NCBI RefSeq assembly: GCF_006345805.1
Contig: NC_043008.1
Span: 14,880,001-14,944,000, forward strand
Direction: 5' to 3'
DNA from: Octopus sinensis
Taxonomy: Eukaryota
Length of the DNA: 64,000 bases
The notes under the pieces: model-generated
Seen by the model: only the letters and a program-made list of their open reading frames with translations
What the model was told of the DNA's origin: nothing
The model's database searches: none
In this document: positions 937 to 58,577 of the stretch, piece by piece
How the letters are laid out: each line of letters begins with the position of its first letter
Position numbering within the stretch: position 1 is the stretch's first letter
Program-made: the position numbers and the translations under genes

Positions 937-1355
937 TATTTCTTTACTACCCACAAGGGGCTAAATACAGAGGGGACAAACAAGGACAGACAAATGGATT
1001 AAGTCGATTATATCGACCCCAGTGCATAACTGGTACTTAATTTATCGACCCCGAAAGGATGAAAGGCAAAGTCGACCTTGGCGGAATTTGAACTCAGAAT
1101 GTAGCGGCAGACGAAATACCTATTTCTTTACTACCCACAAGGGGCTAAACACAGAGGGGACAAACAAGGACAGACAAACGGATTAAGTTGATTACATCGA
1201 CCCCAGTGCATAACTGGTACTTAATTTATCGACCCCGAAAGGATGAAAGGCAAAGTCGACCTCGACAGAATTTGATCCCAGAACGTAACGGCAGACGAAA
1301 TACGGCTACGCATTTCACCCGGTGTGCTAACGTTTTTCAGCCAGCTCGCCGCCTT
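937..1355 (-). mobile_element. tRNA-derived SINE family B, head + 2 tandem units
   Basis: Reverse complement begins AAGGCGGCGAGCTGG (A-box region) and has B-box-like GAGTTCAAATTCC; internal restart junction at about 1113-1122. Confidence 0.9.
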
Positions 1356-12760: not shown

Positions 12761-12930
12761 AGATAGCTGTGTATATGTTTTCAATGGCTAATGTAATTCT
12801 GTGACGATGCTATTGTCATCGAGCACGGTCTCGGATGGAACGTCTCTTGCCAAAGATCTGCCACTTCGGGATTTCTTGTAGCCAGACATTTACCTCTTTG
12901 TAGTACATTAGTGGGATATTGCGGAAAGAT

Positions 12931-13170
12931 AAGGCGGCGAGCTGGCAGAATCGTTAGCACGCCGGGCGAAATGCGTAGCCGTATTTCGTCTGCCGTTACG
13001 TTCTGAGTTCAAATTCCGCCGAGGTCGACTTTGTCTTTCATCCTTTCGGGGTCGATAAATTAAGTACCAGTTACGCACTGGGGTCAATATAATCGACTTA
13101 ATCCGTTTGTCTGTCCTTGTTTGTCCCCTCTGTGTTTAGCCCCTTGTGGGTGGGTAGTAAAGAAATATAT
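12931..13170 (+). mobile_element. SINE family B monomer with 15-bp TSD
   Basis: TSD ATATTGCGGAAAGAT at 12916-12930 and 13171-13185. Confidence 0.93.
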
Positions 13171-13625
13171 ATATTGCGGAAAGATTTTCATTAGTCTTCT
13201 ACTAATATGTAACATGGAAAGGTGTTGTACCTAGTTTTAGTGTTGGTTATGAGACTTCTTCTCAAACAAATTGTATCATCTGTCCGTCATGTGTTAAGTG
13301 ACTAACGATTTATCTATGAAACAAGTGAGATACTCGTGGAGATAAAACCGTTCACTTGAATAAATAAAAAAAAAAACCACAACCCAGTTATAGTATTAAT
13401 TTAAGAAGAAAGTAGCCCAGGCGATTTGTAGTTTCATCAATAACATGGACACTTGCTCAGCAATAGATTTGTGGTTCGAGTCTCATCAGTGATTATGTGG
13501 GGTTTTTTTTCTGTCTCAAATTGATGCATAGATCAGATATAGTTTATATTAAAATATTAGCCCTGAATATGTTGTTTGTTGTTACTGTTTTTGCTGCACC
13601 TACTTTTCTTTACTACAGGATTGTG

Positions 13626-16380: not shown

Positions 16381-16594
16381 AAAGGCGGCGAGCTGGCAGA
16401 ATCGTTAACACGCCGGGCGAAATACTTAGCGGCATTGCGTCCGTCTTTACGTTCTGAGTTCAAATTCCGCTGTGGTTGACTTTGCCTGTCATCCTTCGGG
16501 GTCGATAAAATAAGTACCAGTTGAACACAGGGGTCGAGGTAATATAGTCATACTCTCCCCCAAATTGCTGCCCTTGTGACAAAATTTGAAACCA

Positions 16595-16595
<1 letters not shown>
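16381..16595 (+). mobile_element. SINE family B, short-tail variant (others at 23770-24340 as a cluster and 24926-25118)
   Basis: Same head and central domain but tail CCCCCAAATTGCTGCCCTTGTGACAAAATTTGAAAC, running into (TAT)n. Confidence 0.85.
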
Positions 16596-16625
<30 letters not shown>

Positions 16626-16640
16626 TATTATTATTTATTA

Positions 16641-16671
<31 letters not shown>

Positions 16672-18460
16672 CATTATTATTATTATCATTATTATTATTA
16701 TCCTTATTATTTATTTATTTACCTTTCATTTATGCAGGATCAATACATATACACAAATACCTGTCAACTATGGATGTAATCCACGAATCCCTATCCAAAT
16801 TTTGGGTCTTGTTGGTTAAAAATCCTTATTAAAATATCATCATTTGAAATGGCGTATTTTTGTCGAGGTCATCTATGAAATCCTCAAATCCAATAACTCA
16901 TTTTCAATTCCCGGTTACAGTAACCTTACGTTGCGCTAACCTTTGCAAAACGTATCAAAGTCACAACGTCCTATATTATTTCCGTTTTTTTTTTCAAAGA
17001 TCTCGCTCTTCATATCGTTATAAAAAGTCGATAATCTTTTGTTGTTATATCATGGTAAATGTGTCTATTTTTTTTAGATATTTTTCCCTGCCATTTTTTT
17101 CCCTGTTCATGTATGTTTAGGTTTGCTTTATTTTCTAGAATATGGAAGAAATTTTTGATTTGTTATTTCAAATTACATCAATAAAATGTATATAAAAGTA
17201 TTGTGTTTCAAGCGTTTTATTTCTCTGTCTATCTGTCTGTCTGTCGCTCATTATTTGAGAGAAATCAAAAGGATTTGTTCGCAAGAATAACAACAACAAT
17301 GCATTATATAGTTCTTTTCCTACCAACAGAAAACAAACCTCTTCCGATCTTGTTGGTATCATAATTCAATAATGATTACGCAGTACATGGCAGAATTTGG
17401 ACTTGAAATATAATAGTTCTTAATTTTGATCAATCATGATAAAATTTGAATAATGTGTGGTAGAGATTGATAATATATATTTTCTTGTTTATGAAGTCGT
17501 TTGAATAATGTATTGTTATTAAAGTCACTGCTGTAAAGTAGATAATGGTTAGCAATAGACAGCAAAGTTAGATAACGTACTGGGTTTATTCTGTTGAGCA
17601 AGATGCTAAAATTGAAGAGAGAGAGAGACAATCGCTTGATCATGGCTGCCAAGTATCGGATGAAACAAACAAAAAAGAAGAGAGACTAGCAAGATGAACT
17701 GCTCGAATTGTTTGGTATCGTGCAAATGATTTACGAAATAAAAATAGTTTTGATTTCCGTTTATAGAGTTAACTTGACTGATGTATTACTAGTTTTTGAT
17801 CGGCGTAAACGATACACACGCGATAGATCGGTGAAACTAAAATGTCAGAAGCCAAATGAGTCGTTACATATTCTGTGATAATAAAACAATTTTTATAGGT
17901 TCCTCGAATGTACGGCTTAAATCTACTCGATCAGGCTGAGGTGTGACAGAAAAGAAAAAAGAAAATTAGTAAACAATTACTGCGTGGCTGTGAATATAGG
18001 CGCAGGTATGACAATCAGCTTGCTTCCCAACCACGTTGTTCCGGGCTCAGTCCCATTGCATGGCACCTTGGGAAAGTGTCGGGCCGACGGAAACTGAAAG
18101 AAACTCATCATGTGTGTGTGTGTGTGTATATATCTATGTGTGTGTGTTTGTCCCGCCTCACCGCTTGACAACCGGTGTTGTCGTATTCATGCGTATTCAT
18201 GTCTCCGCAACTTAGCAGTTTGGCAAAAGAGTCGAAACGATAAATACAAGGCTTAAAAGGAAGCAACCCCCCCCCCCCAAGAAACAGAAATAAGTGCTGG
18301 GGTCGATTCCTTCGACTTCATCAAGGTTCACCAAGGCAGTGCTCCAGCATGGCCACGGTCTGATAACTGATACAAATCAAGAGACGAATGACAGCATTTC
18401 TCTGAGTAACAAAGTCATCTCTTGCCAAACGAAATTCAGGTTACGTAATTCATGTGTATA

Positions 18461-18635: not shown

Positions 18636-18837
18636 TGTGTGTATAAATGCATGACAACGAATTTTTGATGGAACCAGAATGCCAAAAATAATCAAGATTC
18701 ATTTTTATTCCCTGTATGACTTAAATGAATGGCAAGCTAAGCATTTCCATTCTCGTACTGAATTGCCATTCCCGTAGACTTTCGAACTTGCAGCATCTAA
18801 CAAGAATGAGGAAGAAGATAATATATACACTTTATAA

Positions 18838-19234
18838 GGCGGCGAGCTGGCAGAAATATTAGCACGCCGGGCGAAATGCTTAGCGGTATTTCGTCTGCCG
18901 CTACGTTCTGAGTTCAAATTCCGCCGAGGTCGACTTTGCCTTTTATCCTTTCGGGGTCGATTAAATAAGTACCAGTTACGCACTGGGGTCGATATAATCG
19001 ACTTAATCCATGTGTCTGTCCTTGTTTGTCCTCTTTGTGTTTAACCCCTTGTGGGTAGTAAAGAAATAGGTATTTCGTCTGCTTTTACGTTGTGAGTTCA
19101 AATTCAGCAGTGGTCAGCTTTACCTTTCATCCTTTCGGGGTCGACTAAATAAATACCAGTTGCGTACTTGAGTCGATCTAATCGACTGGCCCCCTCCCCC
19201 AAAACTTCTGGCCTTGTGCCTAGAGTAGAAAAGA
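18838..19234 (+). mobile_element. SINE family B heterodimer: long-tail unit followed by diverged short-tail unit
   Basis: Junction AAAGAAATAGGTATTTCGTC near 19060-19080; 17-bp TSD ATATRTACACTYTATAA (18821-18837, 19235-19251, 2 mismatches). Confidence 0.9.
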
Positions 19235-19712
19235 ATATGTACACTCTATAAACTGAACATACAGACAAATAATACAATTTAAAAACGAATTCTATAAAGA
19301 CGAAGATCCAGGTGTAGTTAGTACACAGCAGTTTACGATAACAGAAAATAATGTATGTTATCTTTGTCATAAGATCAGTCTACAAGCTAGAGAAAAACCA
19401 GCTGTACCATTGTATGAAAGAATGTACAAATAATGAACTGTTCATTCTCAAATAATATATTCAGAGCAGGGCCATTGTTTAGTAAATATCTCATCATTCA
19501 GACAAAAAGAAGTGTAGTTCCGTTATTTCTCTTCGGTGGCTGTGTGGTTGAGGTGGGGCAGTTCGCTTTGCAACCACGTGGTTTCGAGGTCAATTCCACT
19601 GCGCAGTACCTTAAGCAAGTGTTTTCTTCTACAGCGCCGGGTCGTCAAATGCCTTGTGAGTGAAATTGGCAGATGGAAACTGTGAGGAAGCCTGACATAC
19701 ATACACACATAC

Positions 19713-19743
<31 letters not shown>

Positions 19744-19843
19744 NNNNNNNNNNNNNNNNNNNNNNNNNNNNNNNNNNNNNNNNNNNNNNNNNNNNNNNNN
19801 NNNNNNNNNNNNNNNNNNNNNNNNNNNNNNNNNNNNNNNNNNN
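19744..19843. other. Assembly gap (100 N)
   Basis: Run of n following a (TA)n tract; true distance across it is unknown. Confidence 1.
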
Positions 19844-20181
19844 CTCCTACGCCTCAGTCAAGTTTTAAAACCGAAAATTATCCAAAACTTACAATACTTA
19901 ATCATATCACAGGGAAATTGAAATTAATTAAAATTTTCGTTTCCAGTGGTGTAACGTGTAAAAATTTAGTCCAAAGACTGTGTATTAGTCATAAAATACA
20001 GTGTACATTTGAAGACATAAGGAATTCACTCGTGGATTCTGTCAGCTTGTCGATTTTCGACCGGAAAATAATTAAAACAACAAACACATTGAAGATTTAG
20101 AATAAATCTAGGTAACAGTTGGCTGTTGTTAGATTCGAACTTGCCGATTTTAGCTGCTGTTAGATTCGACTTGAAATTAAT

Positions 20182-20589
20182 CTTTTCCACTCTGAGCACA
20201 AGGCCCGAAATTTTTGGGGAGAGGGTGGAGGGGACAGTCGATTAGATCGATCCTAGTACGCAACTGGTACTTAATTTATAGATCTCCCCGAAAAGATGAA
20301 GGGCAAAGTCGATCTCGGCGGAATTTGAACTTAGAACGTAGCGGCGGACGAAATACCTATTTCTTTACTACTCACAAGGGGCTAAACACAGAGAGGACAA
20401 ACAAGGACAGACAAACGGATTAAGTCGGTTATATCGACCCCAGTGCGTAACTGGTACTTATTTAATCGACCCCGAAAGCATGAAAGGTAAAGTCGACCTC
20501 GGCGGAATTTGAACTCAGAACGTAGCGGCAGACGAAATACGGCTACGCATTTCGCCCGGCGTGCTAACGTTTCTGCCAGCTCGCCGCCT
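20182..20589 (-). mobile_element. SINE family B heterodimer (long-tail then short-tail unit)
   Basis: Perfect 17-bp TSD TTCGACTTGAAATTAAT at 20165-20181 and 20590-20606; same junction as other multimers. Confidence 0.9.
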
Positions 20590-20867
20590 TTCGACTTGAA
20601 ATTAATGTTACTTTTCTGGAGGACTATTTCGTTGTGATTTCTAACATAGGCACACAGGGAATCAATTTTATAGGCCTTTTACCTGACTAGTGCTTATTTT
20701 GTTACTCCTGGAATAATTAAAGGAAAAGTTAACTTATGAGAGACGTAAGTAAATACCACAAGAGAAATTCAGCACCGGTCTTGTACTAATTCCGTTCTTC
20801 TTGTGATCTGACTGACGATTTCAAAACGAATTCTGACACTGCCAAACGGCCACATATTTGTTGGTCG

Positions 20868-21295: not shown

Positions 21296-22253
21296 GATGG
21301 TAGCGTGGTGCGACGGTAGAAAATGGACAGTCTATTTAAATCGACCCAAGGCCTTGGCAGACAGAATCTGAAGTTTGAACATAACTTCGTCTAAGCAAGT
21401 ACAGGGAGACATTTTGCCCCAATAAGCTCCTTGTTTGCCAATAATCACTCTTCAGGCTACCTTAACGGTTGGGTATTTGAGTATTTGGCTCGAACAGTTT
21501 TTGAGAACTATTCTCTCCCACCTACTTCTCTAGTCTCGCTCTTCAGTTTCACGTAGATCACGTGCATGGCTACCAGGCTAAGATACTTCGACTAATTCCG
21601 CTACCAAAATTTCTTTTCACTCTCCCTCCCTCCCATCTCTCTCTCTCTCTCTCCCTTCCCCATGTTTTATGGACGTAATTACATCGTGCGGTTTTTGTTA
21701 CAAACTATCTCTATTGATGGCCTCAACCTCATCGAAGTCTTTGAACTAAAAAAGCCTCAAAAGATCATTAAAAATTCTTTTATCAGAAACTAACAAAAAG
21801 AAATAAATAAAAATCATTTATATTGCTATTTTGAAATATTGTCAAACAAAAAGGTAGCAACAAAAAGAGAAGAAAAAAGAAAGAAAACCCTTAAAAATCT
21901 CAAAAGCGAAAACAACAATGTTAAAAAAAAAAATAAATTCAACCCGGGAGAGAAAGAGATTGTTCTTTTGTTTTTCCTTGCATTAGAAGTAAAAAGAAAA
22001 AAAAACATATAATGATAGTGAAAGTGAAACGAATTGGAGACTGGATGGGTAAAAGTGGAGTTAAGAAACATAACAATAAGTGAATAATTTGAATAAGGTT
22101 TTATCTGATTATTTGAGGCAGACAATATCGATTTAGTTATTTTAGATATGCACTTAGTTTTTAGGTTTATAGTAAAAAAAAAAATAAAAAAATAAAGATA
22201 TGGGATTCTGTGGCGTTAAGACTTATCCGCGTGTGCTATAGCAATACATTTGA

Positions 22254-23234
22254 GAAGGAGGTGAGCTGGCAGAAACGTTAGCACGCCGGGCGAAATGCGT
22301 AGCCGTATTTCGTCTGCCGTTACGTTCTGATTTCAAATTCCGCCGAGGTCGACTTTGCCTTTCATCCTTTCGGGGTCGATTAAATAAAGTACCAGTTTCG
22401 CACTGGTGTCGATATAACCGACTTAATCCGTTTGTATGTCTTTATTTGTCCCCTCTGTGTGTAGTCCCTTATGGGTAATAAAAAAAAAGATAGGTATTTC
22501 GTCTGTCGTTACGTTCTGAGCTCAAATTCTGCCAAGGTCGACTTTGCTTTTCATCCTTTCGGGGTCGATAAATAAAGTACCAGTTTCGCACTGGGGTAAA
22601 TGTAATCGACTTAATCCGTTTGTCTGTCCTTGTTTGTCCTCTCTGTGTTTAGCCCCTTGTGGGTAGTAAAAAAAAAAGGTATTTCGTCTGTCGTTACGTT
22701 CTGAGCTCAAATTCTGCCAAGGTCGACTTTGCTTTTCATCCTTTCGGGGTCGATAAATAAAGTACCAGTTTCGCACTGGTGTCGATATAACCGACTTAAT
22801 CCGTTTGTTTGTCCTTGTTTGTCCTCTCTGTGTTTAGCCCCTTGTGGGTAGTAAAAAAAAAAGGTATTTCGTCTGTCGTTACGTTCTGAGTTCAAATTCA
22901 GCCGTGGTCGACTTTGTCTTTCATCCTTTCGGGGTCGATAAATTAAGTACCAGTTACGCACTGGGGTCGATATAATCGACTTAATCCGTTTGTCTGTCCT
23001 TGTTTGTCCTCTCTGTGTTTAGCCCCTTATGGGTAATAAAAAAAAAGATAGGTATTTCGTCTGTCGTTACGTTCTGAGCTCAAATTCTGCCAAGGTCGAC
23101 TTTGCTTTTCATCCTTTCGGGGTCGATAAATAAAGTACCAGTTTCGCACTGGGGTAAATGTAATCGACTTAATCCCTTCGTCTATCCTTGTTTGTCCCCT
23201 CTATGTTTAGATCCTTGTGGGCAGTAAATAAATA
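22254..23234 (+). mobile_element. SINE family B pentamer (one head + five units of about 185 bp)
   Basis: Five repeats of GTATTTCGTCTG...GGGTARTAAA; single perfect 17-bp TSD TATAGCAATACATTTGA at 22237-22253 and 23235-23251. Confidence 0.93.
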
Positions 23235-24667
23235 TATAGCAATACATTTGACGTGAAATGGCTTCAACTGAATATCGAGAGATCTTACCATTTTGAAATT
23301 GTGTCGCTTGTCACTGTGATGGACCACATTGGTTTCAACTTTTGATACAACCACAGTGCTCGATTGGTACTTATTTTATCGACCTCAAAAGGATGAAAGA
23401 CAAAGTCGACCTGGGCGGAATAAGAACGGAGATCGCAAAGGCGGACGAAACGCCGCTAAGCATTTTGTACGGCGTGCTAACAATTCTTCCAACTCGTCGC
23501 CTTACTCTGATAAACAATATTGTAAGTTATGTTGTCGGTTGTTGACCACTTTTACACGCAATGTCTTCATCATATTCTTCAGAATATAGCTCTAGAAAAA
23601 CAAAAACGGTAAAAATAATTGAGAATCCAGACTTTGGCAACACGATACTAGAAGCCTTTACTACTGATATTCTGAAGATAATGACAAAACAAAGTTATTT
23701 GTCAAATTATTTCTTTTTTCTTTCGGGTGGAAAAAAAACCCAAAAAAACATTAATACATCAGTTTCCAATATTGGTAAGTTGGCAGAGTCATTATCGCCT
23801 TAGACAAAATGATTAGCAGCCATTTCATCCGGCTCTTTACGTTCTGAGTTCAAATTCTGCCGAGGTTCGACTTTGCCCCTCATCCCTTTCGGGGTCGATA
23901 AAATAAAGTACCAGTCAAGTACTGGAAACGGTGTATTCGACTAAGCCCTTCCTTCTAAAATTGCTGGCCTTGTGCCAAAATATGAAATCAATATTATCGC
24001 GAAACCAAAGATGGTGAGCTGGCAGAATCGTTTCCTCGCCGAACAAAATGCTTAGCAGTATTTCTTCCGGCTCTTTACGTTCTGGGTTCAAATTCCACAG
24101 GGGTCAACTTTGCCCTCCATTTAAAAGGCGTCGAGCTGGCAGAATCGTTAGCATGCCAAGCAAATGATTAGCTCTATTTCGTCCGCCTTTACGCTTTGAT
24201 TTTAAATTATAGCTGAGGTCCACTTTGCTTTTAGTCCTTTCGTGATTGATAAAATAACACCAGTTGAATATTGGAGTCGATGTAATCGACTTACCCCCTT
24301 CCCTGATCTTTCACGCCCTGTGCCAAAATTTGAAACAAATATTTAGAATTTAAGTTCTACAAAGAATAGGATATAATCAACTGAATTGAATCTCATTATA
24401 TCACTGGTACTTATAAACCGCTCATTTTGCAGCCATTTACCGATGTATATATTCTTGGGTCGATTCCATCAATTGCACACCTTCCCCGCTCTTCTTTGCC
24501 GATTAATATATTTTTTAATGAAGATAATGAAATTGGTTATACTCGCCCCTCCTCTCTCCCAGTTTTTTGCCTTGTGTTTCTGTTATAAATATATTATCAT
24601 AAAGATGATTGCAGAAGGTGAAAGAAGCAAAAGCGAGTAGGATAAAACGGTTTGTGGTATATTTAGT

Positions 24668-29204: not shown

Positions 29205-30119
29205 TCAATTCCAGCATGGCGTTCTGTAGAAGATTAAGGGAGAGGAGATGCGACGACGTTCTTGGGGAGACTCTGGGCGTAGACAGGGAATACTCGACTC
29301 ACCTCTTCAGGATCACTTTTGGGCCAAAACCTATGGACAATTTCCCGAGATCCCTGGCCTGGCAGTGCTAGCGGGGAGCAGTTCCCGTTCGAGATAAGGT
29401 CTACAGACACAGTTCAAGAAACACCTAGCCGACTTGCCCGAGATGCGGTCAGAACGAACGATGAAACCGTTCTGCACGCACTCATGCAATGTCCAAATAT
29501 TTCAGACCTGTAAGCCTATGTCGAATGGCTGCTGTCACGTGTGGAACGAGTCCGGTTGTCAACTAAGTCTATTGTAAATATTGCTCCGCCAACTTCTTTT
29601 AACCGGGAAGGCAAGGCAGTTTTCATTGTTCTGGTAGCTATGGCGAAAGAATGTTTGAAAGGGTTAGAGACAAATACTTTCCTCTCTGGTTAACCTCTCA
29701 TCATCTTTTTCAAGTATTACTTGAAAAGAAAGGTGAGAGTAGAAAGGGAAATTTTGTCTAAGGAAAAGATTTAATAAAAGGAGGGTGAATGTAGCAAAGA
29801 AGGTAAACATGAATGACGGACCCACTTTGAGCACGAACATATAAAACAAAAAGAGAAAGGGCGCTTTGCTCTCATGGTTTTTTTTCGAGGCGACCGTGGT
29901 TTTATCGTAGGTTTTTACTTCTACGGATAACCCTAGTCAGTGTTATATTTTCTCCCCCTTTTGGGAATTTCTGTTGTTAAAACGTTACCTGGTTACCTTG
30001 TTATCTCTTTGTGTACACGTCCCAAAACGTTTTCGATCCCTATTGATCTGTTTCGAAAAGAAAAATTCTACATTGTATTGTCCCCTCTGTGTTCGGCCCT
30101 GCGTGGCTTAATAAAAAAA

Positions 30120-30120
<1 letters not shown>
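29205..30120 (+). mobile_element. Decayed 3' end of a Tx1/L1-clade LINE (ORF2 C-terminal zinc knuckle + 3' UTR)
   Basis: Frameshifted CPRCGQN..DETVLHALMQC at 29434-29492 (CCHC, zf-RVT type), preceded by SLAWQC*RGAVPVRDKVYRH; ends AATAAAAAAAA then (TATC)n. Confidence 0.8.
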
Positions 30121-30121
<1 letters not shown>

Positions 30122-30201
<80 letters not shown>

Positions 30202-30226
30202 CATCCATCCATCCATCCATCCATCC

Positions 30227-30297
<71 letters not shown>
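30122..30297 (+). repeat. (TATC)n(CATC)n(TATC)n microsatellite
   Basis: Directly visible, immediately 3' of the LINE end. Confidence 0.97.
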
Positions 30298-33814: not shown

Positions 33815-34512
33815 ACTCGACTGCTATTTATTTTATCGACCTTGGAAGGATAAAAAGCAAAGTTGACCTCGGTGGAATTTGAACTCAAATGGTAAAGACT
33901 GGCGTGCTAACGAATCGTCAGCTCGCCACCTTATGTGAAAGAATGACAGTGGTTTCAAATTTTAGTACAAGGCCAGTAATTTAGACCCTAATAGTCAACT
34001 GGTACCTTATCTTATGGATCCCGAAAGGATGAAGTCGAAGGGTAACACCTATTTCTTTACTACCCACAAGGGGCTAAACACAGAGAGGACAAACAAGGAC
34101 AGACAAACGGATTAAGTCGATTATATCGACTCCAGTGCGTAACTGGTACTTAATTTATCGACCCCGAAAGGATGAAAGGCAAATTTGACAACTTAGAAAG
34201 CAAAGTCGATCTTGGCGGAATTTGAACTCAGATCGTAAAGACGTGTAAAAGACGTGTAGCCAAGCATTTTGCTTGGCGTGCTAACGATTCTGCCAGCTCG
34301 CTGCATCATACGGAAGAATAATAACGGTTTCAAATTTTGGCACAAGGCCAGCAATTTCGACCTTAGATGTCAACTGGTATTTATTTTATCTATTCCGAAA
34401 GGATGAAAGGCAAAGCTTACCACGACGCCATTTGAACTCAGAAACCTTAAGTCGGAAGAAATGCCGCTATATATTTTGCCCGGGGCGGTATCGATTCTAC
34501 CAACAGACCGCC
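33815..34512 (-). mobile_element. Cluster of nested and adjacent SINE family B copies
   Basis: Young long-tail copy at about 34047-34305 among older short-tail copies. Confidence 0.8.
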
Positions 34513-35489
34513 TTTATACGGAGGAATGACAATGAAAAAGGAAAATGCATTATTAATTGCAATTTAAAAAGAAAAGCGCATATTTTTCTTACTTTTCCAA
34601 ATCTTTCGACTTGTGTTGGATATTTTTAACACTTAATACGTATAAATACATACATACATATATACATACATACGTTTATATATATATATATATATATATG
34701 TATGAATGTATGTATATATATATACACCCATCCACACACATATATGTATATATATACATACATATAATGTATACACATACATGCATAGATACATACATGC
34801 ATCGAATAGGTTATATCTATCTATCTATCTATCTATATATATCTTGCTATCTATCTACATAAAAACACACATTCATACATACACATATGTGTTGCTACTT
34901 ATGAAGGTGTGGGCAAGCCTCATTCTTATTGTTCTTCATGTTTGCTCAAATATAATTTTCATAAATTGATACAATATTACAATATCTCATTAGTATACAG
35001 CTAATTCTATTTTCAATATTTCATATTATTACTTACAACTTAAGCACGAACATTTTATTCACATTCAGTTTTTTTTTCATATATCATCTGTCTGTCTGCA
35101 TTACTATACCGCCTTATTAAAGACTTCATTTGATTTGATACGCTAATTCTGATCTATAAAACATCTGCTGCTCTTGAGACGTTGTAAGTAATCGTAGAAG
35201 CACGTTTGTATCGTCTGTTAATAATTCTGTATCGTCTGCAAATACTTTTATATCGTCTGCTATCACTTGAAGTTAATTGTAACATATTTTAAACACGAAT
35301 TTAACTGATATAACTAAATGTGTTTGTCTTGTTTAATTATGAACATATTTTGTTAAATAAAATTTAGCAATGATAGTAATTGGTTAATTCTTAAACTAAG
35401 GAGGCGTGGGTTGATCAAATCGATTCCAGGTGGGATGTGAACTCAGACGTAAAAAGCAAGTCATTTTGATCGACGCTGTAACAATTTAT

Positions 35490-37840: not shown

Positions 37841-37962
37841 CTGCAGGAGATGCTTATTCTTATATAAAACCCTTGGGCTGGAAATTAACTCAACCAATTC
37901 GGAGAATCCCGTGTGAATCGCAGATCATGATTTTCCAGCATTCCCATGTCTGCATACTTACC

Positions 37963-38195
37963 TATTTCTTTATTGCCCACAAGGGGCTAAACACAGAGGG
38001 GACAAACAAGAACAGACAAACGGATTAAGTCGATTACATCGACCCCAGTGCGTAACTGGTACTTATTTAATCGACCGCGAATGGATGAAAGGCAAAGTCG
38101 ACCTCGGCGGAATTTGAACTCAGAACGTAGCAGCAGACGAAATACTACTAAGCATTTTGCCCGGCGTGCTAACGATTCTGCCAGCTCGCCGCCTT
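37963..38195 (-). mobile_element. SINE family B monomer with about 16-bp TSD
   Basis: TGTCTGCRTACTTACC on both flanks. Confidence 0.9.
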
Positions 38196-38533
38196 ACTGT
38201 CTGCGTACTTACCGACATCAAGGATCTTCCTTTGGCTTGTTTCTCGATCTTGCCAAATAAGGTAGGAAGGTTGTACGAGATATTGTGCAAGCCTTATTGG
38301 ACCGTCAATTCTGCATAGACATTGATGACTTCCCTTCAGTTTAATTGCTTTTGTTTTTAGTTTTGTAACGATGGGAAACTAAAGACTCGACGCAAGCGCA
38401 ACCTGTGCATAACATACACACACACATAACACATACACACACACGCATACACACACACATACATATATGCTCACACACACATATACATACATACATGCAC
38501 ATACGCACACATGCATATGGATGTGTATATATA

Positions 38534-50475: not shown

Positions 50476-51842
50476 GAAATGTTAGCGATGTTTTCATGGA
50501 TACAGGGATTTCTTAGCAACAGGTTTGAACACTCAACATTTTCTTTGTTTATTAACACACCATTATATTAACTCGACCAAGTATCACTCCCTATACGGAA
50601 TTGCTATAACGTAACTAGGCCCTAAGGTTAAAACGCCAAGGGTTGCTTCCTCCAGCAATAAATTCAGCCCCACCGTAATTGCTTATAGCTAGATCCTTAG
50701 TATTCTTATCCATGGATACATTGCAAGTGACAGAAATTCAGTTGCCGATAATTTGATTGGATATTCGACACACAATCAATTTATCCATTGGTAGATTTCG
50801 TCGGAGTAGAAAGCTCAAAATAAAATATCTAGAAATGAAGAAATTTAGATATCTCGAAGATAAGTTAAATAAAGAAATAGTTCAAATAAAAGATGGATTT
50901 ATGCATTCGAAAGCTTCATATTTTGATTTTCAATATCTCGTTTCTAATTCGCACACATAGATAAGTTACTTTTCAAATAAAGGTAAAAGGAAAACAAAAA
51001 GAAAAAGAAAAAGAAAAGGAATTTCTCTGAGAAGTCTTACTTTTACTGCTATTGTATATATGACAATTCTTCTAGATCTTTCCTAGTGACTAACACAGTT
51101 GTGTCATTGCTATCAGGCTTCAACACAATTGAATACGACTTAGATCGATCGTTAAGATAATGTTTAAGGAAATTGAGTCTTCCTCTCGTGTATCATTATG
51201 AAGGGGGCCGCAAATAAACCATCATATACTTCATAAACGAAATATAGAAAATCTAGAAAAAACATTAACCCAGTTAAAAGGAGAGAAGAGTAAATGTCAG
51301 TGTTTCAAACATTACAATAAACTGGAGATTTCTCAGCTCAATAATGATGGAATTTGTTCGTGAAATTGTCAATTAACTGTTGTCTTATACACACTTTTAA
51401 GAATCAATCAGAAAGTTCTTCGGGGCTTGTAAATACAGTTAAGCATTATCACTAGATTTTGGCAATAAAAGCCGCATAATTTTATTTACCTTATTATTTA
51501 GTTGTTGGAGAGCAATAAATGCTTGCTGCAGATATGTTAAAAGAATGGTGAAGTGTTTAAGGAAGCGAGTGGTGAAACATAGCTGCGAGAAATGGCATCG
51601 TTTAAGAAATCATAATGTCGTGTCTCCGCTACAAGAAACAATTTTTGACGTTAGAATTTAAGCAAAGTATCCTTGTGTGTTTTCTCACTTTAAGTAATCA
51701 TATCACCAGTTAAAGTAGTGCAGTGTTTCAGATATTTTTTTATAGCAAAGTTAGTAGAGCTCTGCTTAGAGAAGCAGCTAGGTCATCGTATGAAGCAAGC
51801 TAGATGAGTTGGGATACGTAGATAAGTAGGTATACAAACAGC

Positions 51843-52237
51843 AAGGCGGCGAGCTGGCAGAAACGTTAGCACGCCGGGCCAAATGCTTTGCGGTATTTCG
51901 CCCTTCGCTACGTTCTGAGTTCAAATTCCGCCGAATCGACTTTGCCTTAAATAAGTACCAGTTACGCACTGGGGTCGATATAATTGACTTAATCCCTTTG
52001 TCTGTCCTTGTTTGTTCTCTCTGTGTTTAGCCCCTTGTGGGTAGTAAAGAAATAGGTATTTCGCCCGTCGCTACGTTCTGAGTTCAAATTCCGCCGAGGT
52101 CGACTTCGCCTTTCATCCTTTCGGCGTCGATTAAATAAGTACCAGTTACGCACTAGGGTCGATATAATCAACTTAATCCCTTTGTCTGTCCTTGTTTGTC
52201 CTCTCTGTGTTTAGCTCCTTGTGGGTAGTAAAGAAAT
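51843..52237 (+). mobile_element. SINE family B dimer
   Basis: Junction AAATAGGTATTTCG near 52050-52063; TAGGTATACAWACA on both flanks. Confidence 0.9.
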
Positions 52238-52434
52238 AGGTATACATACACCCTGCACATACAGCAATCATAGCACCACTTGTAAGCCATACACATATAC
52301 CACTACATCTACATCACTGCATATACGCTAGTAAGTATATAAGTACACCACTTACACCTCTTACACCACTCCATGTTTATCACTCCATACACAACTACAT
52401 ATACACACTACCACATATTAATACACAAGACTAG

Positions 52435-57104: not shown

Positions 57105-57195
57105 CTCCTATCTGTCTTTCTGTCTGAGGGTATGTTTCTATCCATCTATCCGTCCGTCTGCCTGTCTGTATGTCTGTCTACGTGCTTGTTTTTCT

Positions 57196-57797
57196 TCTTT
57201 GTTTTTTACTATCCACAAGGGGCTACACACAGAGGGGACAAACAAGGACAGACAAACGGATTAAGTCGATTATATCTACCCCAGTGCGTAACTGGTACTT
57301 AATTTATCGACCCCGAAAGGATGAAAGGCAAAATCGACCTCAGCGGAATTTGAACTCAGAACGTAACGGCAGACGAAATACTATTTCTTTACTACCCACA
57401 AGGGGTTACACACAGAGGGGACAAACAAGGACAGACAAAGGGATTAAGTCGATTATATCGACCTCAGTGCGTAACTGGTACTTAATTTATCGACCCCGAA
57501 AGGATGAAAGGCAAAGTCGACCTCAGCGGAATTTGAACTCAGAACGTAACGGCAGACGAAATACCTATTTCTTTACTACCCACAAGGGGTTAAACACAGA
57601 GGGGACACACAAGGACAGACAAACGGATTAAGTCGATTATATCGATCCCAGTGCGTAACTGGTACTTAATTTATCGACCCCGAAAGGATGAAAGGCAAAG
57701 TCGACCTCAGCGGGATTTGAACTCAGAACGTAACGGTAGACGAAATACTGCTTAGCATTTCGCTCGGCGTGCTAACGTTTCTGCCATCTTGCCGCAT
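57196..57797 (-). mobile_element. SINE family B trimer
   Basis: Three units; perfect 17-bp TSD TACGTGCTTGTTTTTCT at 57179-57195 and 57798-57814. Confidence 0.93.
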
Positions 57798-58577
57798 TAC
57801 GTGCTTGTTTTTCTACCTTTCTCTTTGCCAATCTGTCTGTCTCTCAGCCTGTTTACCTGTCTGCCTGCCTGTCTGCTTACTTGTCTGGTGGTCTGCTCGT
57901 CTGTTTGTCTGGCCAACTCTAACTATAGGTAATTCAAACATGCTTCATTGAGTTCTGTTTACTCCCCAACTCTTCCTCCCACCGTTTCCATCACCCTTCT
58001 CTCTCATATCTCTACCATCGAACAAACTCTATAGAAATCTACTCTGAAGAGAATCGCTTAAAGTAAATCAAACTTCAGACGGACTTTATGTGGCTTAATC
58101 AATACCAGAAATGTTTGAAAAGCAGGGAGAATTTCCGAATCTTATAGCCTTCCCCTCTTACCGCACGCATCCTCCTCTCTCAAATTCCATTTTGTTTGGC
58201 TGCCATCATTATCAAGAGTTGGCTATTTTTACGACCGACATAACATATGTCATTGCTGTTTATTGTGATGGTCGCTCAAAGTAACATAACAACTATACTT
58301 ATTTTATAACTAGCAATAAAGCCTACCGTTTGGAAAACGGATATTTCCACTTTTTTTTCTTTTTTCTTTTTTTTTTTTTTGTGGCGTAAAATTTTATTTC
58401 AGAATTCTCGGGAATTTGTAAATCAATAAAATATAGGGACTTCTCATTGTCACCCATTTTTTTTGGTTTTTATCGAGGTGAAAAAGCAATAGACTTATCT
58501 AAACAGAAAGAAAATTAAAAAAATAAACAGACCAGAGAAACGAAAAATATAAAGAACAAAAATCACACACACACACA

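Follow-up and report, generated by a model that had tools for sequence, protein, structure and literature searches.

The window analyzed here, a stretch of 64,000 nucleotides of Octopus sinensis DNA (contig NC_043008.1, positions 14,880,001 to 14,944,000), contains six tandem arrays of a putatively tRNA-derived SINE in which a single head is followed by several units, and it raises the question of why these units are joined at one fixed internal position and how such single-headed arrays arise. The data presented below indicate that the fixed junction is very probably an insertion site within the SINE, which likely borrows the enzyme of a group of LINEs to insert into its own family.

The SINE was about 235 bp long and consisted of a head of about 49 nt, a body of 119 nt and one of three tails, of which tail a terminated in AAAGAAATA and tails b and c were distinct; the tails of monomers terminated in AAATA. 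It is a short, non-coding, interspersed repeat of high copy number (39,636 exact matches to 24-mers of the head context in the 2.72-Gb genome), flanked by target-site duplications (TSDs) of 13-18 bp in most copies. A- and B-box-like motifs were recognized by eye; ARAGORN reported no tRNA there and no tRNA gene in the window, and Rfam gave no match. The SINE may resemble the MetaSINE superfamily, which is characterized by a central Meta domain. All six arrays of the initial annotation were recovered, each with a single head and units of 184-189 bp: two units at 937 (minus strand), 18838, 20182 (minus strand) and 51843, three at 57196 (minus strand) and five at 22254. Five of them lay within one TSD, as had been described, and none was found for the array at 937; the targets of the insertions at 37963 and 51843 did start with GGTA and TAGGTA, respectively. 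The features are as follows.

22237..22253 (plus): 5' TSD copy of the pentamer, 17 bp, an exact repeat of 23235-23251
22254..22303 (plus): sole head of the pentamer, with A-box-like motif and the 5' arm and loop of the target-site hairpin
22304..22492 (plus): pentamer unit 1, body with B-box-like motif and LINE-related tail a; first base C
22493..22677 (plus): pentamer unit 2, starting at the fixed junction GGTATTTCG
22678..22862 (plus): pentamer unit 3
22863..23050 (plus): pentamer unit 4
23051..23234 (plus): pentamer unit 5, terminal, with a2-type tail
23235..23251 (plus): 3' TSD copy of the pentamer
937..1355 (minus): dimer a-a, junction at 1120, TSD not found
18820..19251 (plus): heterodimer a-b, junction at 19068/19069, 18-bp TSD with 2 mismatches (18820-18837 and 19234-19251)
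20165..20606 (minus): heterodimer a-b, junction at 20357, exact 17-bp TSD (20590-20606 and 20165-20181)
51827..52250 (plus): dimer a-a, junction at 52054/52055, 14-bp TSD starting TAGGTA, with 1 mismatch (51827-51840 and 52237-52250)
57179..57814 (minus): trimer a-a-a, junctions at 57565 and about 57381, exact 17-bp TSD (57798-57814 and 57179-57195)
37947..38213 (minus): monomer, 16-bp TSD starting GGTA
12916..13185 (plus): monomer, the reference copy, 15-bp TSD

The tails of the pentamer have decayed into A-runs, and the last unit of the arrays at 18838 and 20182 carries another tail type, which makes these two arrays heterodimers. An N gap of 100 bases (19744-19843) lies between them.

The break was located between AAAGAAATA and GGTATTTCG, at about SINE position 50 (hereafter +50), where the native head-body context reads TAGC-GGTATTTCGTC. 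The initial annotation had correctly recognized a fixed junction but had misplaced it by 4 nt, the break being upstream of the position given and GGTA being head-internal sequence. The hairpin GCGGTA-TTTCGTC-TGCCGC proposed there was not the lowest-energy fold, which was a longer hairpin of 12-13 bp with a UAGC loop, on whose 3' side the junction falls. Two head variants keep the hairpin pair, and they represent one subfamily split, not independent covariation. An 18-mer spanning the junction had 35,388 exact matches in the genome, and the reversed control had 0. Spacing between tail and B box was identical in 95 of the 100 matches listed, the remaining 5 having small insertions, so the junction heterogeneity that had been considered was not observed with this pattern, which would miss any junction lying farther than about 10 nt upstream of +50.

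We also analyzed an unselected sample of 864 kb, made up of 464 kb around and including the window and four 100-kb blocks, all chosen irrespective of junctions. Among the elements starting with a tail-a unit, 45 had one unit, 29 two, 9 three, 5 four, 2 five and 1 seven, and about half of the copies with tail a were multimers. The sample held 74 tail-a junctions, 65 of them within 6 nt of +50, 7 at about +17 and 2 head-to-tail. Internal tails were of type a in 74 of 79 cases, as expected if tail a alone is delivered to the +50 site; tails b and c never preceded a +50 junction in the 864 kb and were terminal or joined elsewhere. The second, rarer fixed junction at about +17 had 1,107 exact matches in the genome and went with a2 tails (6/17 vs 1/52 in the unselected sample). 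It is also seen at loci L241-L270 and in L047 at about 1400-1750, and there are further joints, at offsets near +17 to +30, between b- or c-tailed units and remnants of the head.

The junction was present as loose contig ends in short-read data of organisms A to D, and therefore it is not an assembly artefact, a concern that the initial annotation had raised. No short-read contig spanned the pentamer, whose five units are thus the count of the assembly. One contig of organism B reached from the flank into the pentamer head, which shows that this insertion is common to organism B. Organism E had low tail-a depth and no junction end among the matches listed, which is a weak hint only.

The +50 position was found to be occupied by another element. 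An L1/Tx1-type LINE lies between TAGC and (G/C)GTATTT within many unrelated SINE copies. It came up in a search for tail-a-like ends lacking the SINE body, which gave 19 matches, two of which were one LINE end with SINE body behind it. One copy of 5.3 kb (L050:122-5456), 90 kb from the window, sits between a SINE head with repeated site and a SINE body. In other copies ORF2, of 1,134 aa and with APE, RT and zinc-finger domains, is intact, and ORF1 is of the CCHC type. Pfam detected zf-CCHC in ORF1 and Exo_endo_phos, RVT_1 and zf-RVT in ORF2, a layout common to L1 and Tx1; the best named homologue was an automatically named TX1 149 kDa protein (P0013; 31% identity). The final 35 nt or so of the LINE align with SINE tail a, and the same tail ends sister LINE families.

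The insertion sites of this LINE were examined with a SINE-free query, for which the best 40 of 378 candidates were scored and 30 fetched, the query included. In 30/30 of these top copies the SINE body at +50 directly followed the LINE. Exact 3' ends of the LINE numbered 150 in all; 96 of the 100 listed read like the site (judged by eye over 13 nt), and the other four started with G/C-G/A-TAT. For full-length copies, a set of 21 was used (20 picked from the 30 fetched, plus L050), and every one had SINE head sequence upstream and an identical +1 base on both sides. The LINEs diverged by 0.6%, the host heads by 13.6% and the host bodies by 13.4%, and such near-identical LINEs in divergent hosts indicate independent insertions. 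For the hosts themselves, an outer TSD was recovered in only 3/21, partly because the loci end early.

Sister LINE families with ORF2 55-60% identical and the same tail were found at (ATT)n in 17/17 cases and at (TATC)n in 13/13, in a search that covered the top 50 of 74,262 candidates. Insertion is thus sequence-specific into a repeat, the SINE at +50 for one family and microsatellites for its sisters. A fragment of this group is present in the window.

29234..30297 (plus): 3' fragment of a sister LINE of L1/Tx1 type, broken; its tail is of the same kind, and it stops at a (TATC)n tract

This piece had 49-56% identity to the SINE-targeting ORF2; it does not belong to the SINE-targeting family and matches the TATC-specific sisters. 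In the window, b- and c-tailed SINEs lie inside or beside (ATT)n tracts (16382-16711 and 34049-34514), which suggests a different partner LINE with an AAT/ATT preference. The LINE found here may differ from the family that actually mobilizes the SINE. With about 150 exact 3' ends and 0.6% divergence it is younger than most SINE copies (about 5% from consensus), and its tail looks like subtype a2, whereas a1 carries most +50 junctions; it also accepts C at +1 freely, which SINE junctions do not. At locus L171 a SINE body is joined to an exact LINE-type tail end, possibly a recombinant of the kind by which the SINE tail can be refreshed from the LINE.

The copy of the site on the 5' side of the LINE was often fresher than that of the host, with variants common to L234 and L050 and to L221 and L230, which suggests that homology-resolved 5' ends occur. 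The RNA of the LINE probably starts within target sequence. In L221-L240 and L050, the 17-nt site copy 5' of the LINE sometimes has variants common between loci and absent from the host.

Young SINEs were found at the same base. A pattern of head, site and new head had 76 matches in the genome. From the first 30 of the 76, 19 distinct loci were read by eye. At 8 of the 19, young tail-a copies were nested at +50 of older hosts with duplications of 13-17 bp; some nested loci share private host variants, and some hosts keep their own TSD (L153, L161, L162). Five loci were double-headed composites lying whole within a fresh TSD, which means that nested structures get re-copied, and the other six were multi-headed, truncated or otherwise arranged. 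The pattern of junction, site and new head had 43 matches, and 9 of the 12 loci read ended again at a +50 junction; new heads at junctions indicate that the junction recreates the target. Visible double-headed nestings amounted to about 0.3% of exact junctions (119 vs 35,388, by patterns that differ in stringency), and from this rarity it follows that most junctions were inherited or homology-resolved. The junction thus forms anew, and the self-targeting insertion that had been suggested from the window alone is supported by a LINE and nested SINEs with TSDs at one base. The partner LINE class, the order of tails in the heterodimers and the +17 junction had been overlooked in the initial annotation.

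The following course of events is proposed. The LINE and young tail-a SINEs both arrive at the same base in SINE copies. The endonuclease of the LINE group would nick the site, reverse transcription would start at the shared tail, and the new tail would become fused to the GGTATTTCG of the host. Since a T4 stop is missing from most units (270 of 384 lacked TTTT), Pol III transcription from the inner head would continue past the tail and into the body of the host; a T4 run in three of the five pentamer units counts against such read-through. The product would be a single-headed multimer RNA, re-inserted elsewhere within a fresh TSD. The recreated target can be struck again, so that unit number may rise; conversely, it would fall if priming took place at an inner tail. 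The read-through GGUA of the RNA may pair with the nicked target and sharpen its choice. Arrays of at least three units, to judge from their pattern, also grew or were shuffled via local duplication.

The history of the arrays was analyzed by unit divergence in 416 elements, including loci picked for junctions. Unit pairs of dimers had a median divergence of 8.9%, compared with 10.2% between arrays, and 0/34 were under 2% divergent. Dimer units are therefore nearly as different as random units, by which a circle or simple duplication is rejected for dimers. In longer arrays, of at least three units, 45/273 pairs were under 2%, which indicates that local duplication adds units later. The pentamer is a mosaic, with variants common to units 2 and 5 and to units 1 and 3, and together with the near-identical pairs this supports the DNA-level shuffling that had been proposed for it. 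The four or more homogeneous middle units that characterize long arrays of a SINE-derived satellite (sSat) were not found, and a few arrays of 7-9 units approach this state. Long arrays, then, grew further by local duplication, and the majority of single-headed arrays have the appearance of nested composites that were transposed again.

Other origins of the junction and of the arrays were weighed against this reading. A circular RNA of about 185 nt, or an RNA cut at the hairpin loop and copied by rolling or jumping reverse transcription, would explain why the junction is base-exact, self-complementary and at the 3' side of a hairpin loop, and it would suit the near-identical inner units of some long arrays. 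We nevertheless consider it very unlikely, given that no dimer pair was under 2% divergent, that heterodimers, of which a-b combinations are common, end in other tail types, that Rfam gave no match at E<=10 and the CTGANGA motif occurred on the plus strand of 3/385 units, and that the LINE's own DNA insertions account for the position of the junction. The circular route, one of three offered in the initial annotation, is accordingly not supported as the main one; template jumping at a stall or cleavage site, also named there, is unneeded for the fixed junction and possible for some arrays. Retrozymes carry a self-cleaving ribozyme in each unit and form near-identical tandem units from a circular template. 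The SINE was rejected as a retrozyme, since Rfam had 0 matches, the hammerhead core was essentially absent and near-identical dimer units were not found, although a ribozyme of an undescribed kind is conceivable; the motif scan agreed with the earlier report of no hammerhead core in the unit. Descent of all multimers from one ancestral dimer by unequal crossover is extremely unlikely. A G at +1 in 99% of junctions, the local homogenization of long arrays and the mosaic pentamer are what it would lead one to expect, but it is contradicted by nested insertions with host-private duplications, the evidence that disposes of the single-dimer origin foreseen in the initial annotation. Junctions into a, b and c bodies, arrays in distinct TSDs and an independent LINE at the same base also oppose it, and what is left of it is a contribution to long arrays.

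Growth in place is an alternative to the re-copying of nested composites. Here a resident copy would receive new units at +50, the overhang of the duplicated site would anneal to the cDNA, and the extra head would be lost or replace the old one. Homology-resolved 5' ends do appear to occur in the LINE, as described above. TSD mismatches were more frequent in b-ending arrays than in a-monomers (25/335 vs 17/452, p=0.025), which speaks for slightly older TSDs in the former; for a-ending arrays the figure was 24/386 (p=0.11). C at +1 was rarer in arrays (18/79) than in a-monomers (23/56, p=0.036), which also favors growth in place. Against it, the heads of a-b arrays were young and a-like (8.6% divergence vs 15.5% for b monomers), and the +1 base differed between first and last unit in 25/77 headed arrays, a discordance that fits re-copied composites; LINE copies were concordant. 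Two further results also oppose it. A test for hidden TSDs in arrays with b, c or unassigned ends was null (first-16-nt variants common to first and last unit in 4/32, null 0.13), a-ending arrays showing a mild excess only, which extended along the entire unit; nor did first and last units differ in age (20 vs 21 of 47, p=0.59). As the main route, growth in place is rather unlikely; re-copying and growth in place probably both operate, the latter probably in some of the arrays, with the 5' end resolved through homology.

We then analyzed how the target is chosen. Heads had C at +1 in about 45 of 100 listed, and the LINE used C at +1 in 54 of 100 listed ends. SINE junctions with C at +1 numbered 387 vs 35,388 (1%), and new nestings had it in 3/76. 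TSD-verified targets started with GGT in 13/17 cases for a1 tails, 2/18 for a2, 0/12 for b and 0/5 for c (background 1.1%, p=1e-4), and 6/18 a2 targets started with AGA. These target starts support the priming by microhomology that had been suspected, and as sequence patterns they hint that read-through RNA guides the SINE to its target. The avoidance of C, the tail-specific target starts and the association of a2 with +17 are all predicted by read-through pairing; a sister LINE with G-only or +17 specificity would yield the same pattern. In R2Ol, the RNA carries downstream target sequence whose annealing to the target makes the reaction more accurate and more efficient (PMC6795142). That priming resembles the read-through proposed here and was demonstrated for an autonomous rDNA element, unlike the present non-autonomous SINE, in which the sequence read through would be its own.

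The chance that the SINE carries a heritable RNA-encoded address, in that sequence read through by a master copy primes its daughters, seems to us nearly even. If it does, masters that landed in their own family would keep homing there, a1 tails at +50 and a2 tails at +17, and a self-perpetuating loop with an enzyme from a parasitic LINE would have made multimers of half the family and would seed satellites with no need of recombination as a start. Targeting may instead be set wholly by protein, with sister LINEs of different endonuclease specificity mobilizing different tail subtypes and no role for RNA, a reading to which we give just under an even chance and which opposes the step of read-through GGUA pairing alone. 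It agrees with the strict site specificity of sister LINEs that share the tail, with the acceptance of C or G at +1 by the SINE-targeting LINE, and with the view of Kojima (PMC4494074) that target choice lies mainly with the endonuclease. On the other side, no LINE at +17 was found by eye among 30 fetched loci, three of which held just a short tail piece behind other sequence, and no G-only LINE was found in the small part searched. One LINE haplotype went with C targets (7/8 vs 5/23, post hoc p=0.002), also a point against a purely protein-set choice; a permutation test on whole distances between haplotype and target base was null (p=0.39).

The closest precedent is that of the crocodilian SINEU and Tx1-Mar, a SINE and a Tx1-clade LINE with a fixed common target within Mariner-N4_AMi (Kojima 2015, PMC4494074). 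Tandem SINEU-3 insertions are reported there, and the authors deduce trans-mobilization from the common target. The octopus target, in contrast, is the SINE itself, so that insertion feeds back on the family and recreates the site; its units are headless with no TSD between them, and the 3' tail is common to a LINE group. As described there, Tx1L in Tx1D, Keno, Kibi and Koshi are site-specific APE-type LINEs like the present one, and our sister families at (ATT)n and (TATC)n parallel Kibi and Koshi at microsatellites. The targets named there are DNA transposons, snRNA and 5S genes, microsatellites, satellites and LTR elements, with no SINE among them, whereas the target here is a tRNA-type SINE head.

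Single-headed SINE arrays are also found in another mollusc. The blood clam S. broughtonii has structures of the form TSD1-(SINE)n-TSD1, with one full head, head-truncated repeats, one TSD and 4-15 units (PMC11481361). According to that report, the inner units are truncated on their 3' side as well, tandem or palindromic copies make up about 3%, and unequal recombination is put forward as the cause. The octopus arrays share the single full head, headless units and one TSD, but about half of the tail-a elements are multimeric and an insertion site explains the junction. Squamate SINE satellites likewise have tandem units shorter than the SINE, one longer terminal unit and greater uniformity in long arrays; they are subtelomeric, their units vary within short loci, and unequal recombination is given as their origin (PMC10702118). 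The octopus arrays resemble them in having units shorter than the SINE, one longer unit at the end and greater uniformity in long arrays, and differ in being short, interspersed, TSD-flanked and base-exact. No description of an octopus SINE multimer or of a SINE-targeting Tx1 family was found in the largely open-access literature searched, and supplements or Repbase and Dfam entries may contain one; the main text of PMC13282606 does not mention multimer, dimer, nested or target site.

The octopus case thus offers a specific way in which retrotransposition can turn an interspersed SINE into tandem arrays, a change for which PMC10702118 and PMC11481361 invoke recombination. It would be a three-way loop, in which a LINE parasitizes the SINE, the SINE wears the tail of the LINE group, and the SINE is its own preferred target. 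One genome supplies tens of thousands of natural events, a G/C polymorphism of the target and intact LINE ORFs, which makes the shares of endonuclease and RNA-DNA pairing in non-LTR targeting directly testable. For repeat annotation, multimers of this kind would be expected to split one family into many consensus models.

Tandem arrays of other kinds were also observed. Head-only arrays with units of 65-76 bp, made of the head and 16-27 nt of the site, were present at loci L147, L145, L152, L154 and L165 (for example G000:C1:195358955-195359250); they reach 9 or more copies on C3430, and one 65-bp unit recurs at several loci. In the window, a further repeat family, unrelated to the first and likely also a SINE, forms a tandem of 2.3 units with a period of 171 at 1617-2008.
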